DNA of 64,000 nucleotides, from IMG/VR virus record IMGVR_UViG_2974528942_000001, positions 11,381 to 75,380 of that record. One strand, given 5' to 3'. A model generated the notes under the pieces. That model saw nothing but the letters and a program-made list of their open reading frames with translations. It was not told the origin of the DNA and made no database searches. A program made the translations under genes and the position numbers. Of this stretch, positions 61,726-64,000 are shown piece by piece. This DNA is from a virus. Lineage: Duplodnaviria; Caudoviricetes. Numbering within the stretch: position 1 is the first letter of the stretch; every line of letters begins with the position of its first letter.

Positions 61726-61741
61726 TGTGATGTAGGTCACA
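61726..61741. promoter_or_regulatory. Perfect CRP/GlxR-type site TGTGA-TGTAGG-TCACA
   Basis: Exact TGTGA-N6-TCACA with central TA; 21 bp upstream of the -35. Confidence 0.75.
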
Positions 61742-61770
61742 CAGCCGGGTTGGCCGTCGTGACCAGCCCC

Positions 61771-62656: not shown

Positions 62657-62669
62657 GGTGATGCCTTTC

Positions 62670-62725
62670 TAGTTGCATGGTGCAACTATCTAGTTGAATG
62701 TTGCAATAGTTACGATCTGCAACTA
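62670..62725 (-). promoter_or_regulatory. Promoter TTGCAA-18-CACCAT overlaid by three 19-bp operator-like sites
   Basis: TAGTTGCATGGTGCAACTA (perfect IR), TAGTTGAATGTTGCAATAG, TAGTTACGATCTGCAACTA. Confidence 0.6.
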
Positions 62726-62751
62726 TCGAGATCAGTATTGTGGACTACGTC

Positions 62752-63237
62752 TCACAAACCACACAACTTGGCGACGTCCGCCCGGTACCGCTTGGGGACG
62801 TCGAGGCGTAGGGTGCGATGGGGCCAGAGCGACCTTTTCACGACTTCGCTGTACCGGACCACTGCGGAAAAATGTAGGTCATCGCGGTCTACGCGGCGTG
62901 TAGAACTCTTGTTCTTTTTCACCCTAGCGGTTTTCGGTGCCGGGTTTTTGGGTTGCACAGGTCGCATGGTCTGATTCTCAACCATCGTTTTCACGTTGGC
63001 TTGAATCCCCGTCATGTTCCAACTATAGGCCGTGGTCTCGTCTGGGCGTGTTTCATCTTTGCCCGCCCAATTGTCCTTGTTGACACAATCCGCCTCGGTC
63101 CGTTCCCGCATAGCGATCACGGTATTCAGCGGTGTTAGCGGGGTGTTGATACCCGTACCCCGTTTAGCGGTGGCGCGTACCCGTTTGGTCACGGTGACCG
63201 TACGTGGTGCAGACGCCATAGGCAGCGGTCTACCCAT
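62752..63237 (-). CDS. Possible basic protein (161 aa), atypical codon usage
   Basis: Good GAAAGGG RBS, but rare codons (CTA, AAA, CAA, AGT) and it overlaps a short-motif array. Confidence 0.4.
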   Translation of the reverse strand: MGRPLPMASAPRTVTVTKRVRATAKRGTGINTPLTPLNTVIAMRERTEADCVNKDNWAGKDETRPDETTAYSWNMTGIQANVKTMVENQTMRPVQPKNPAPKTARVKKNKSSTRRVDRDDLHFSAVVRYSEVVKRSLWPHRTLRLDVPKRYRADVAKLCGL

Positions 63238-63239
63238 GA

Positions 63240-63881
63240 TGAACCCTTTCGTTGTGTGGTTCTAGTCCGTTGTGCAGCGATGAAACTGCACGCATGTATT
63301 GATCTAGCGTGTCACTATTGCCATGCGTCAACCCTACGGTTGCCAGCGGTCGACCCGTCCGTTTCATTCGGTGACCATCGCGCGGTCGTTCCTACACAAC
63401 TCATGGAGACCCTAGACGTCCATGCCGTTGTGCGTGTGGGCCGGTATAGCGGTCGCCCGCTAGAACCCTAGTCCGTTAGCGGTCTAGTGCCCGTATCACC
63501 CGCGCGAAGCGGATCTAGATTCAATTTGTATCGCGGTGGTTAGCGATGAACCCTAGACAAAGTCTGCCCTTCCACAGTTCGCGCGTCCGCTGAGCCGGTC
63601 TTATGTACGTGCATGAACCCGCTGGTTGCGGGGGCCGTAGCTATTACACATGCACTGCCGTGCGGTGCCTCACGTTCTAGTGATCCCGTACCGGCTAGAA
63701 CCCTAGCCGTCATCCGCTTTAGGGTGCGTTCGACCCGCTACCGTGTTTCCACGGCCTATCCGCTTTTTCGCAGCGTTCATCGCGGCGCGTGTGCCCGTAG
63801 GTCCCGCGCGTACCGACCGCCATCCCGCCCGCGCCGCGCGCGGGACCGGGGCCGGGGGGCGATTGCCCCCCCCGATTCGGT
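63240..63881 (-). ncRNA. Candidate long structured leader/ncRNA or iteron-like array
   Basis: No ORF with phage codon usage; multiple hairpins; repeated GAACCC(TAG), CTAG, AGCGGT; lies directly downstream of the 63.9-kb promoter. Confidence 0.4.
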
Positions 63882-63887
63882 AGGTCT

Positions 63888-63917
63888 ACCGTACCACGGC
63901 GCGTGGCACCACGGCAA
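63888..63917 (-). promoter_or_regulatory. Rightmost leftward promoter TTGCCG-18-TGG.TACGGT
   Basis: Spacer TGGTGCCACGCGCCGTGG differs at 2 positions from the 56.7-kb promoter spacer TGGTACCACACGCCGTGG. Confidence 0.75.
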
Positions 63918-63938
63918 CCCCCCCGGGGCCGCTGCGTG

Positions 63939-63954
63939 TGTGACGTGCGTCACA
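63939..63954. promoter_or_regulatory. Perfect CRP/GlxR-type site TGTGA-CGTGCG-TCACA
   Basis: Exact consensus; 21 bp upstream of the -35. Confidence 0.75.
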
Positions 63955-63968
63955 TTTGGGAGCGGGTT

Positions 63969-63990
63969 TTGTACCAGGGGTTGTACCAGG
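63969..63990. repeat. Direct repeat TTGTACCAGG x2
   Basis: Copies at 63969-63978 and 63981-63990. Confidence 0.7.
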
Positions 63991-64000
63991 CGCGTTATAC

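Follow-up and report, generated by a model that had tools for sequence, protein, structure and literature searches.

A gene-free, hairpin-rich interior of the direct terminal repeat in Gordonia phages of the Katyusha type and its possible role as an early leader

By its sequence, the window (the whole stretch of 64,000 nt that was analysed) is of the Gordonia phage Katyusha/Benczkowski14 type, subcluster CS4. Its positions 63240-63881 are the gene-free interior of a direct terminal repeat (DTR). Comparison of two lineages, the Katyusha group and the Demosthenes group, indicates that the hairpins of this interior are under selection, with pairing conserved rather than sequence. Our tentative reading, held with a confidence just short of even, is that the interior is a structured 5' leader of about 640 nt belonging to the first early operon, with its last hairpin over the ribosome site of gene 99.

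Location within the terminal repeat and coding status

The right DTR copy spans 62829-64000 (1,172 bp), and the physical right end of the genome is the last base of the window (64000). Genome positions 74209-75380 are 100% identical to positions 1-1172, in the same orientation and at both physical ends, and Kvothe and Demosthenes likewise carry a DTR at both ends. The 1,172-bp DTR of Katyusha/Benczkowski14 has already been published (PMC4919401, PMC5559632), having been deduced from read coverage (PMC4919401). A preliminary description of this DNA did not record that 63240-63881 belongs to the DTR.

Within the Katyusha group, 63240-63881 is ~99% identical, compared with 94% for the adjoining gene and 80% for DNA past the DTR. 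Between lineages, identity is only 54-62% over large parts of the stretch and reaches 84% at 63386-63525. The most conserved block (63481-63518, 38 nt) has two variable positions in seven genomes and contains two CTAG and the palindrome ATCTAGAT. A G+C-rich tract with G and C runs (63771-63935), which includes an 11-bp stem and a G/C hairpin, is 54% identical between lineages yet rich in G/C runs in both. The G+C content of 63240-63881 is 61%. Exact-pattern scans for further lineages returned Demosthenes alone among viral contigs, no match among metagenome contigs and, among genome contigs, either nothing or chance 20-mers in unrelated MAGs.

The stretch had been described as non-coding, and this holds. 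Coding potential was excluded by stops in all six frames in both lineages, by the lack of codon periodicity (substitutions by codon position of 77/76/71, versus 65/38/29 in the adjoining gene) and by indel lengths, 6 of 24 being divisible by three.

The adjoining gene is the last one, annotated in Kvothe and Niagara. Its product, gp99 in Kvothe (161 aa; 62752-63237, minus strand), has its start and first 135 codons inside the DTR and its last 26 codons outside. It belongs to PHROG 24747, of unknown function, and has no match in Pfam. The AF2 model is mostly of low confidence (pLDDT 59.7), with only a C-terminal three-helix unit confident. Foldseek found no match for it, the best VIA Z of 3.9, to the same three-helix unit, being uninformative, and an Atlas search gave low-score neighbours only. 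Across the Pfam, PHROG and AF2 comparisons, gp99 has no recognisable RNA-binding fold. Homologues of gp99 are P0002, P0004 (on a 73.5-kb contig) and P0005.

Selection on hairpin pairing

Minus-strand RNA of 63240-63881 has a predicted minimum free energy of -275.4 kcal/mol (z = -3.7), and folding as single-stranded DNA gives z = -6.0 for the minus strand and -4.3 for the plus strand. The stretch is thus richer in hairpins than chance allows, as had been proposed, and every hairpin named at that time was found (63854-63871, 63800-63847, 63741-63754, 63692-63709 and 63272-63291), within an array of about ten small hairpins.

To score conservation, a hairpin counted as retained despite stem changes when at least three arm bases had changed and the same place still held a perfect hairpin with a stem of 6 bp or more, whatever its register. 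This was the case for 6 of 14 Katyusha hairpins here versus 5 of 96 elsewhere in the genome (Fisher p = 4.6e-4). The register-free test replaced a BLAST-register variant, which covered 283 nt of the stretch. In helices compared in register, 98.4% of cells were paired and three pairs were changed on both sides, with none so changed in slid controls. Different stems stand at the same place in the two lineages at H1, H4, H6, H7, H8 and H9, and at least seven inverted repeats with unrelated stem sequences show compensating change between lineages. Covariation had been suggested as a check on the structure: pairs kept through compensatory change, as looked for in a leader RNA, were found, but in two lineages only, and every compensatory change therefore counts as one event.

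Nearest gene 99, H0 (GAACC/GGTTC; 63241-63262, minus strand) takes up in its stem the GG of GAAAGG, the ribosome-binding site immediately ahead of the gp99 AUG. All seven genomes retain this hairpin; a change in Demosthenes and ASerpRocky reads as G-U in the minus-strand sequence and as A-C in the plus-strand sequence. H1 (63272-63291) gives way in the other lineage to a GCACAGT/ACTGTGC stem. H2 (63290-63328) has a 7-bp stem, whose outer pair goes from A-T to G-C, and a nearly invariant 25-nt loop. H3 (63395-63432) combines an outer CACAAC/GTTGTG stem and an inner CATGGA/TCCATG stem with an invariant 11-nt loop, GACCCTAGACG; two inner pairs are changed on both sides between lineages and none is broken. 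Within 63443-63487 lie H4 (TAGCGG/CCGCTA with outer GGT/ACC, replaced in Demosthenes by a 10-bp stem of other sequence), H5 (CTAGTCCG/CGGTCTAG, in which a T-T mismatch becomes an A-T pair in Demosthenes) and, alongside both, the 12-mer CTAGAACCCTAG.

H6 (63609-63655) has a 7-bp outer stem and an inner CCCGC/GCGGG stem, and a different 7-bp hairpin stands there in the Demosthenes group. H7 (CGGCTAG-AACC-CTAGCCG; 63692-63709) overlaps a dyad, ACCCTA...TAGGGT, at 63700-63725; its position in Demosthenes reads CCCCTAG...CTAGGGG. H8 (63741-63754; CCGTG-TTTC-CACGG on the plus strand, with a GAAA loop on the minus strand) has as counterparts GAGCC-TAC-GGCTC in Demosthenes and Hollow and GAGCG-TATG-CGCTC in ASerpRocky. 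The 11-bp stem pairs 63800-63810 with 63837-63847, where Demosthenes has a 10-bp stem of different sequence, and the G/C hairpin lies at 63854-63871. Stems in the array are almost all Watson-Crick, without clear strand preference. Both wobble changes seen in stems within a lineage are valid on the minus (mRNA-sense) strand only; wobbles between lineages are mixed, some favouring the plus strand.

We also considered whether the inverted repeats could be dimer-binding palindromes on duplex DNA, making the stretch an operator array of an early control region. Palindromes do occur in or near it (TGGTRCCA, TGTGA-N6-TCACA and ATCTAGAT), some loops are invariant while their stems vary, and the corresponding region of sister phages holds obvious operator-like arrays (six copies of GTGGTACTAG in Monty, GTTGCAACTA arrays in Woes). 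Since the stems all differ in sequence, they cannot be explained by one duplex-binding protein; the seven or more unrelated compensating stems would each need a separate co-evolving protein, and loops of 3-25 nt share no common dimer geometry. We therefore judge an operator array to be rather improbable.

CTAG and other recurrent motifs

Eleven CTAG fall within 63262-63706, where 2,000 local dinucleotide shuffles of 63240-63881 give an expectation of 1.6 ± 1.1 (maximum 6). The density is 17.1 per kb in 63240-63881, 0.65 in coding DNA and 4.2 in other non-coding gaps (Poisson P = 1.2e-4 against the non-coding rate). Counts and shuffles thus confirm the reported abundance of CTAG here and its scarcity in coding DNA. 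The second lineage has 10-11 CTAG, though only 7 of 11 positions are shared.

These figures bear on the simplest alternative, that the stretch is relaxed non-coding DNA whose features are by-products of chance or composition. Outside the genes of this phage CTAG is generally commoner than inside them, and the low identity of large parts of the stretch between lineages would agree with such relaxation. However, the density of CTAG here is about fourfold that of other non-coding DNA, the second lineage keeps the number with only 7 of 11 positions shared, the hairpins survive stem changes, and the stretch is more alike within the Katyusha group than the adjoining gene or the DNA beyond the DTR. 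A lack of function is hardly credible on these grounds.

The sequence GAACCCTAG occurs on the plus strand at 63463, 63548 and 63698 and is absent from the other 62.7 kb on both strands. ACCCTAG lies at 63409, 63465, 63550 and 63700, on the plus strand only, with 0-1 copies in the other 62.7 kb, and the ACCCTA hexamer has a frequency of ~0.12 per kb elsewhere. The stretch also holds ATGAACCC (minus strand: GGGTTCAT) three times and GTGCCCGTA and CCGTTGTGC twice each, so that the GAACCCTAG triplet is where it had been placed and the other recurrent motifs are present. Three ACCCTAG copies are kept in the Demosthenes group. AGGGU(U)C occurs 5-6 times on the minus strand; the ribosome site of gene 99 is among these copies, and some lie in loops (H3, H7). 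Inspected by eye as possible -10 elements, the ACCCTAG copies had no fitting -35 sequences. MetJ-type boxes were dismissed, AGACGTCT being a single copy in the Demosthenes H3 loop; we know of no MetJ in Actinobacteria.

The spacing of ACCCTAG is irregular (56, 85 and 150 nt), which fits poorly with the replication iterons put forward in the preliminary description. An iteron-bearing origin would suit non-coding, repeat-bearing DNA that adjoins the helicase and primase genes in the concatemer. Yet 63240-63881 has no DnaA box at up to one mismatch and, at its G+C content, no AT-rich unwinding element, and origin-like DNA that is AT-rich and bears repeats and a DnaA box is found elsewhere, at genome 1230-1860, just outside the left DTR copy (a single DnaA box outside the DTR, at genome ~1290-1299). 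We regard an origin in this stretch as very unlikely.

Promoter-like site and genome end

A host-type promoter-like site, by sequence a candidate for the housekeeping-sigma (SigA) type, lies on the minus strand at 63888-63917, about 120 bp from the right physical end. Its -35 TTGCCG (63917-63912) and -10 TACGGT (63893-63888) are separated by an 18-nt spacer that contains TGGTGCCA, and the predicted start, near 63881, would read leftward into the genome. The site is a near-copy of TTGACA-18-TACCAT at 56.7 kb; members of this promoter family also occur at 47.2 and 43.7 kb (minus) and 27.7 kb (plus), always oriented with the genes. Its position is kept in all seven genomes (TTGC[CG]N-16/18-TANNNT), in keeping with the earlier idea of a promoter just upstream of the stretch on this strand. 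A generic consensus promoter scan left TTGCCG-18-TACGGT uncalled. No terminator-like site (G+C-rich hairpin plus T run) occurs in 63238-64000 on either strand, the hairpins of 63240-63881 being without T tails, and a strong terminator closes the upstream left-arm operon.

Upstream of the promoter-like site, a CRP/GlxR-like palindrome, TGTGA-N6-TCACA (63939-63954), has invariant arms and a variable 4-nt centre in the seven genomes. It is followed by a conserved right-terminal block (63955-64000) with TTGTACCAGG at 63969-63978 and 63981-63990 and the ending ...TATAC. This block is 88% identical between lineages, versus 54-62% nearby, and can be partly aligned to Monty and Woes; it is a candidate cutting signal, outside 63240-63881. 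The ACCCTA element stands at 301 nt from the right end in Katyusha, 323 in Demosthenes, 357 in Monty and 335 in Woes. With its sequence and approximate end distance kept across subclusters, the dyad looks more like an end-linked protein site on DNA than an RNA helix.

Location in the DTR interior and an ACCCTA dyad at similar end distance across subclusters strengthen a reading at the DNA level, the main rival of the leader, which we hold to be unlikely but worth weighing. The stretch would be a genome-end, packaging or injection element whose hairpins form in single-stranded or supercoiled DNA and whose ACCCTAG copies are protein sites. With the same low probability, and by analogy, it might serve in concatemer cutting and DTR duplication, in end recognition by terminase, or in pausing or anchoring the entering DNA. 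Consistent with such an element are stems that are nearly exclusively Watson-Crick and show no clear strand preference, a fold excess that is greater under DNA parameters, the single orientation of all ACCCTAG copies, a dyad that in four lineages lies 301-357 nt short of the right end, terminal 60 nt that align across subclusters, and the precedent of T5 repeat region 3 (10.1101/866236), although the T5 function is itself hypothetical. However, the physical ends and conserved end blocks lie outside 63240-63881, analogous DNA in Monty and Woes is mostly outside the DTR, and T5-like DnaA boxes are absent. Single-stranded hairpins in the DTR would moreover hinder annealing of the repeats, and H0 sits exactly on the gene-99 ribosome site.

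A candidate leader of the first early operon

A conserved promoter-like site and the absence of a terminator before gene 99 make a structured early leader a reasonable reading of the stretch. With the terminase gene near the left end, gene order suggests that packaging probably finishes with the right end, which would then lead on entry into the cell. From a start near 63881, host RNA polymerase would transcribe leftward through 63240-63881 into gene 99 and on into the early genes of the right arm. The leader hairpins would stabilise this long untranslated RNA, and H0, covering part of the ribosome-binding site, would set the level of gene-99 translation. More speculatively, the (U)AGGGUUC copies, which resemble this ribosome site, could be protein contact points. 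As the stretch is inside the DTR, its left-end copy would yield the same leader, running off the end.

Leaders are short at the other promoters of the family, which makes a long one here special. CTAG-rich DNA in Monty and Woes lies mostly outside the DTR, which ties the trait to the early region and not to repetition. The fold excess of the predicted RNA (z = -3.7), the two within-lineage wobbles valid on the minus strand only and the position of H0 on the ribosome site all count for a leader. Against it count the folding of single-stranded DNA, at least as significant (z = -6.0 and -4.3), and stems that are almost all Watson-Crick.

The preliminary description had proposed an abundant structured early RNA that resembles no known family. 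Its structured, early character is reasonable for a leader, given the promoter-like site, the absence of a terminator before gene 99 and the selected hairpins. An Rfam 15 search agreed with the lack of resemblance: the sole match, Tymo_tRNA-like on the plus strand at 63820-63896, scored 19 bits (gathering 40; E = 0.49), and the left DTR copy and Demosthenes gave none at E ≤ 1. ARAGORN found no tRNA or tmRNA genes in the three sequences scanned.

That such an RNA stands alone or is processed from a longer transcript, and acts as a decoy or sponge, we consider improbable. By analogy with CsrB/RsmZ, its (U)AGGGUUC copies might titrate a host or phage RNA-binding protein; equally improbably, the ~640-nt hairpin array, first made in infection and from both DTR copies, could expose (U)AGGGUUC together with CUAG as the decoy. 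This reading shares the transcription and structure evidence with the leader; the minus-strand AGGGU(U)C copies, which include the ribosome site of gene 99, would suit it, and two DTR copies double the template. Against it, between the stretch and gene 99 there is neither a terminator nor a processing site, just three motif copies are retained in the second lineage, and gp99 lacks a recognisable RNA-binding fold, with no candidate partner protein found.

Implications

Terminal repeats of tailed phages are usually reported as a length alone. The DTR interior described here bears clear marks of selection on nucleic-acid folding and carries a motif nearly absent from the rest of the genome. If it is a leader, it would offer a tractable case of translational or RNA-stability control over the gene that a lytic actinobacteriophage expresses first of all. 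If it acts as DNA, it would be an actinobacterial counterpart of the untranslated T5 terminal-repeat region that has long lacked an explanation, and a handle on end recognition and cutting by cluster CS phages. Should the sponge reading hold, actinobacteriophages would have a class of large structured early RNA not described before. The reach is modest in any case, since the element occurs only in a small group of Gordonia phages.

Comparison with known systems

The left terminal repeat of phage T5 contains a 1.66-kb part that is non-coding, stop-rich, rich in repeats and palindromes, and conserved among relatives (10.1101/866236). The same traits (gene-free, stop-rich, bearing repeats and palindromes, conserved among relatives) were found in 63240-63881, and like T5 repeat region 3, or injection-stop-signal region, it is a large gene-free, stop-rich part of a long DTR whose function is inferred and unproven (10.1101/866236). 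The two share no sequence similarity, and 63240-63881 lacks the paired DnaA boxes by which the T5 region is defined. The T5 DTR is ~10 kb, whereas that of the Gordonia phage is 1.2 kb with only one partial gene sharing it; in addition, the host here is an actinobacterium and the promoter-like site would direct transcription across the stretch into a gene. T5 injects its DNA in two steps, which the Gordonia phage is not known to do.

At the left end of T7, as reportedly described by Dunn and Studier in 1983, a terminal repeat and short repeat arrays are followed by the host-type promoters A1-A3 and by a long leader, containing an RNase III hairpin, that precedes gene 0.3. There, as in the Katyusha type, the end that enters first (here an inferred one) is gene-free for several hundred base pairs, promoters for host polymerase point inward, and the first transcript has a long structured leader (here a predicted one). 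The T7 promoters and leader lie outside its 160-bp repeat but inside the DTR here, and the stems described above are short (5-11 bp), unlike the RNase III-type duplexes of T7.

The sponge RNAs CsrB and RsmZ and structured cis-regulatory leaders contain multiple covarying hairpins. They resemble the present stretch in a repeated G-rich motif like a ribosome site and in a hairpin over the downstream ribosome site. There is no homology and no Rfam match, and the motif copies here are few and partly conserved; to our knowledge, CsrA does not occur in Actinobacteria.

Further parallels are in the sister Gordonia phages Monty (subcluster CS2) and Woes (CS3). Their non-coding right-end regions have a lower G+C content (47-49%), other repeat families dominate in them, and they cannot be aligned here except at the ACCCTA element and the terminal 60 nt. 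Their CTAG-rich unannotated DNA extends over ~1.65 kb, nearly all of it outside DTRs of 184-191 bp. Nevertheless, the DNA ahead of the last gene, in a matching genome position, has 17 CTAG in each phage and a high density of hairpins; both also share the ACCCTA/TAGGGT dyad, at 335-357 nt from the right end, and a related terminal 60 nt.

Location within a known terminal repeat

Over its final 1,301 bases, the window matches the Gordonia phages Niagara (99.4%), Kvothe (98.2%), Teatealatte and Tredge (both 96.7%), with more distant matches (~81%) to ASerpRocky, Hollow and Demosthenes. Two places match in each phage record, the left end giving the best match in the distant group. The source record (75,380 bp, of which the window is bases 11381–75380) is classed with direct terminal repeats (DTRs), and genome positions 1–1172 are identical to 74209–75380, or 62829–64000 in the window. 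The published size of Katyusha and Benczkowski14 (subcluster CS4) is 75,380 bp with a DTR of 1,172 bp, whereas the repeats of its sister subclusters are much shorter, 191 bp in CS2 and 184 bp in CS3 (PMC4919401, PMC5559632). Because 62829–64000 is a DTR copy, and record size and repeat length are the published ones, we conclude that the stretch at 63240–63881 lies inside an already known terminal repeat and is its gene-free part.

The DTR boundary splits gene 99, the last gene (62752–63237, minus strand), 77 nt ahead of its stop. The left-end copy is truncated by 26 codons. These contribute to a predicted three-helix unit, the one portion of the protein modelled with confidence; transcripts of this copy would run off the DNA end. 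Analysis of gp99 gave no functional clue. Its homologues are P0002 (JGI contig, 86% identity), P0004 (73.5-kb assembly contig, 62%) and P0005 (ENA contig, 58%); the phage collection therefore lacks one or more lineages of this group, from which covariation data could come.

Non-coding status and motif content

The preliminary description had called the stretch non-coding, dense in CTAG and unlike any recognised RNA family, and all three points held. Stop codons interrupt every frame in both lineages compared, substitutions by codon position show no periodicity (77/76/71, vs 65/38/29 in gene 99), and of 24 indels only 6 have a length divisible by three, which rules out a coding stretch. A search of the stretch found no Rfam family, tRNA or tmRNA. 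CTAG occurs 11 times between 63262 and 63706, far above the 1.6 ± 1.1 (maximum 6) expected from 2,000 local dinucleotide shuffles; its density is 17.1 per kb, compared with 0.65 in coding DNA and 4.2 in other non-coding gaps (Poisson, 1.2e-4). GAACCCTAG was found three times and ACCCTAG four times, every copy on the plus strand, vs none and one, respectively, on either strand of the other 62.7 kb.

Hairpins retained in diverged sequence

Each hairpin listed in the preliminary description is present. Relative to shuffles, the fold z-score of the stretch is −3.7 for minus-strand RNA, and −6.0 (minus) and −4.3 (plus) for single-stranded DNA. Two lineages were available for comparison, the Katyusha group (four records in addition to the window) and the Demosthenes group (three records). 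Their identity to each other is uneven, reaching 84% at 63386–63525 and 88% in the last 65 bases, but 54–62% elsewhere and 66% in the DTR part of gene 99. Members of the Katyusha group share ~99% identity in the non-coding stretch, 94% in gene 99 and only 80% in the DNA just past the DTR. For Teatealatte against Katyusha, identity falls from ~99% inside the non-coding DTR to 80% directly past its boundary (genome 1173–1860), where Teatealatte is in places Demosthenes-group-like; this pattern suggests that a recombination boundary coincides with the edge of the repeat.

In diverged sequence, the hairpins (numbered H0–H9 from gene 99 towards the right end) keep their alignment position while their stem letters differ. 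From the Katyusha to the Demosthenes group, H1 changes from GTGCAG/CTGCAC to GCACAGT/ACTGTGC, H4 from TAGCGG/CCGCTA to a 10-bp stem of other sequence, H7 from CGGCTAG/CTAGCCG to CCCCTAG/CTAGGGG, H8 from CCGTG/CACGG to GAGCC/GGCTC (GAGCG/CGCTC in ASerpRocky), and H9 from an 11-bp stem to a different 10-bp stem. The outer pair of H2 switches from A-T to G-C, and two inner pairs of H3 are changed around an invariant 11-nt loop. A register-free test took Katyusha hairpins with at least three arm changes in Demosthenes and scored as retained those still forming a perfect hairpin, 6 bp or longer, at that position: 6 of 14 were retained in the stretch vs 5 of 96 in the rest of the genome (Fisher p = 4.6e-4, approximate because some hairpins overlap in the G+C-rich part and so lack independence). 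The stretch holds 26 hairpins per kb, vs 12 elsewhere. Among in-register helices, pairing holds in 98.4% of cells; in three pairs both partners have changed, a case absent from all slid controls. The feature is genuine and statistically sound; that it has no function is scarcely credible.

An array of operators recognised on duplex DNA is improbable: every stem sequence differs and each palindrome would need its own co-evolving protein, so intra-strand pairing is by far the simpler explanation. As to the strand, and hence RNA or DNA, the four within-lineage stem changes comprise two minus-only wobbles, one compensated change, one mismatch and no plus-only change, and between-lineage wobble pairs are mixed as to strand.

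A putative promoter upstream of the stretch

A promoter-like site on the minus strand at 63917–63888 (TTGCCG, 18-nt spacer, TACGGT), ~120 bp from the right physical end, is a near-copy of a site at 56.7 kb (TTGACA-18-TACCAT). Sites of the same family at 47.2, 43.7 and 27.7 kb each point in the direction of their genes; members of the family other than the site at 63917–63888 lie 20–45 nt from their genes. At the latter position, all seven genomes keep the form TTGC[CG]N-16/18-TANNNT. Between the site and the start codon of gene 99 (63237), no terminator-like site was found. The left-arm operon ends at a strong terminator (genome 1838–1802, 16-bp stem and T run), which makes read-through from a neighbouring genome in a concatemer unlikely. 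Upstream of the promoter-like site, towards the physical end, a perfect TGTGA-N6-TCACA palindrome (CRP/GlxR-like) occupies 63939–63954; across the seven genomes its arms never vary, whereas its centre does. A second perfect copy lies at ~61730–61745. In hairpin H0 (63241–63262), the final Gs of the ribosome-binding site that immediately precedes the gene 99 AUG are base-paired. H0 is kept in 7/7 genomes, two of which carry a change that pairs as G-U when read on the minus strand but mispairs as A-C when read on the plus strand.

In our reading, the stretch is a composite region within the DTR that serves early control. Its best-supported role, favoured tentatively, is that of a structured 5′ leader, ~640 nt long, on the transcript of the first early operon, in which hairpins would stabilise the long untranslated RNA, H0 would gate gene 99 translation, and the AGGGUUC copies may act as protein contacts. 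That the same structures belong to a stand-alone sponge RNA seems unlikely.

The gap between genes 99 and 98 (62657–62751) carries TAGTTGCA...TGCAACTA-type palindromes and two CTAG. Its GTTGCAACTA motif forms arrays of 5–7 copies in Woes (CS3), occurs also in the DTR of Monty (CS2), and is likely a cluster-wide operator for some regulator.

Physical ends and sister subclusters

The left physical end starts GCGACCTTTT in all CS4 phages (62829, the left DTR boundary), with similar starts in Monty (GTGCATCTTT) and Woes (GCGCACTTTT). The right end reads ...GCGCG(T/G)TATAC, and right ends are related across subclusters (...TGGGA..(N)..TTTGGA/TTTGTA...), which suggests a shared end-recognition sequence despite the six-fold difference in DTR length. 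Both boundaries and their conserved blocks fall outside the stretch, which is therefore not the cutting site itself. DNA packaged last is usually ejected first; with the terminase gene near the left end, the right end and its inward promoter-like site would enter first.

Monty and Woes carry ~1.65 kb of unannotated DNA after the last gene, hairpin-dense and with 17 CTAG each, but with different repeat families. Only 191 or 184 bp of it is DTR, so the CTAG and hairpin trait tracks the region upstream of the last gene and not repeatedness. Four phages share an ACCCTA element, whose distance from the right end is 301 nt in Katyusha, 323 in Demosthenes, 357 in Monty and 335 in Woes, pairing with TAGGGT as a dyad in Katyusha, Monty and Woes and forming a CCCTAGGG palindrome in Demosthenes; elsewhere the hexamer occurs at only ~0.12 per kb. 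The terminal 60 nt can be aligned across all four phages. The strongest case for a function at the DNA level and related to the end, at least of the ACCCTAG motif, comes from this conservation of sequence and end distance in four lineages. An end, packaging or injection element acting as DNA, comparable to untranslated repeat region 3 of phage T5, is the main rival to the leader and a possible, if rather doubtful, account of the stretch.

A tract at 63771–63935 and its Demosthenes-group counterpart, 70–230 bp from the right end, have extreme G+C with long G and C runs (four G7–G8 runs on the plus strand in Demosthenes). Its composition is conserved and its sequence is not; G-quadruplex, melting barrier and pause site are candidate roles.

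Junction beyond the left repeat copy

A 690-bp unannotated AT-rich junction (genome 1173–1860), which the window does not include, adjoins the left DTR copy on its right side. It carries a conserved rightward promoter-like site (TTGACG, 18-nt spacer with TGGTACCA, TATAGC), terminator-like hairpins on the plus strand (genome 1621–1659), TTATAGTTTCTTT-type repeats and a DnaA-box match (TTATCCACA at 1299 in Demosthenes, TAATCCACA at 1290 in Katyusha). No Rfam match to the junction was found. It is a candidate origin and/or ~0.4 kb non-coding RNA.

The preliminary description had proposed a structured early RNA or DNA iterons. The former survives as the putative early leader. A replication origin in the stretch is very improbable; it is weakened by the location of the AT-rich, repeat-bearing DNA with the DnaA box, which sits at genome 1230–1860, outside both DTR and window.

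Comparison with known terminal repeats

In the terminal repeat of T5, untranslated repeat region 3 lacks genes, is rich in stops, is packed with repeats and palindromes, is conserved in related phages and still awaits an explanation (10.1101/866236). The stretch resembles it in the first four respects, and represents a variant within an established class, that of structured control regions which stay untranslated in phage terminal repeats or early leaders.
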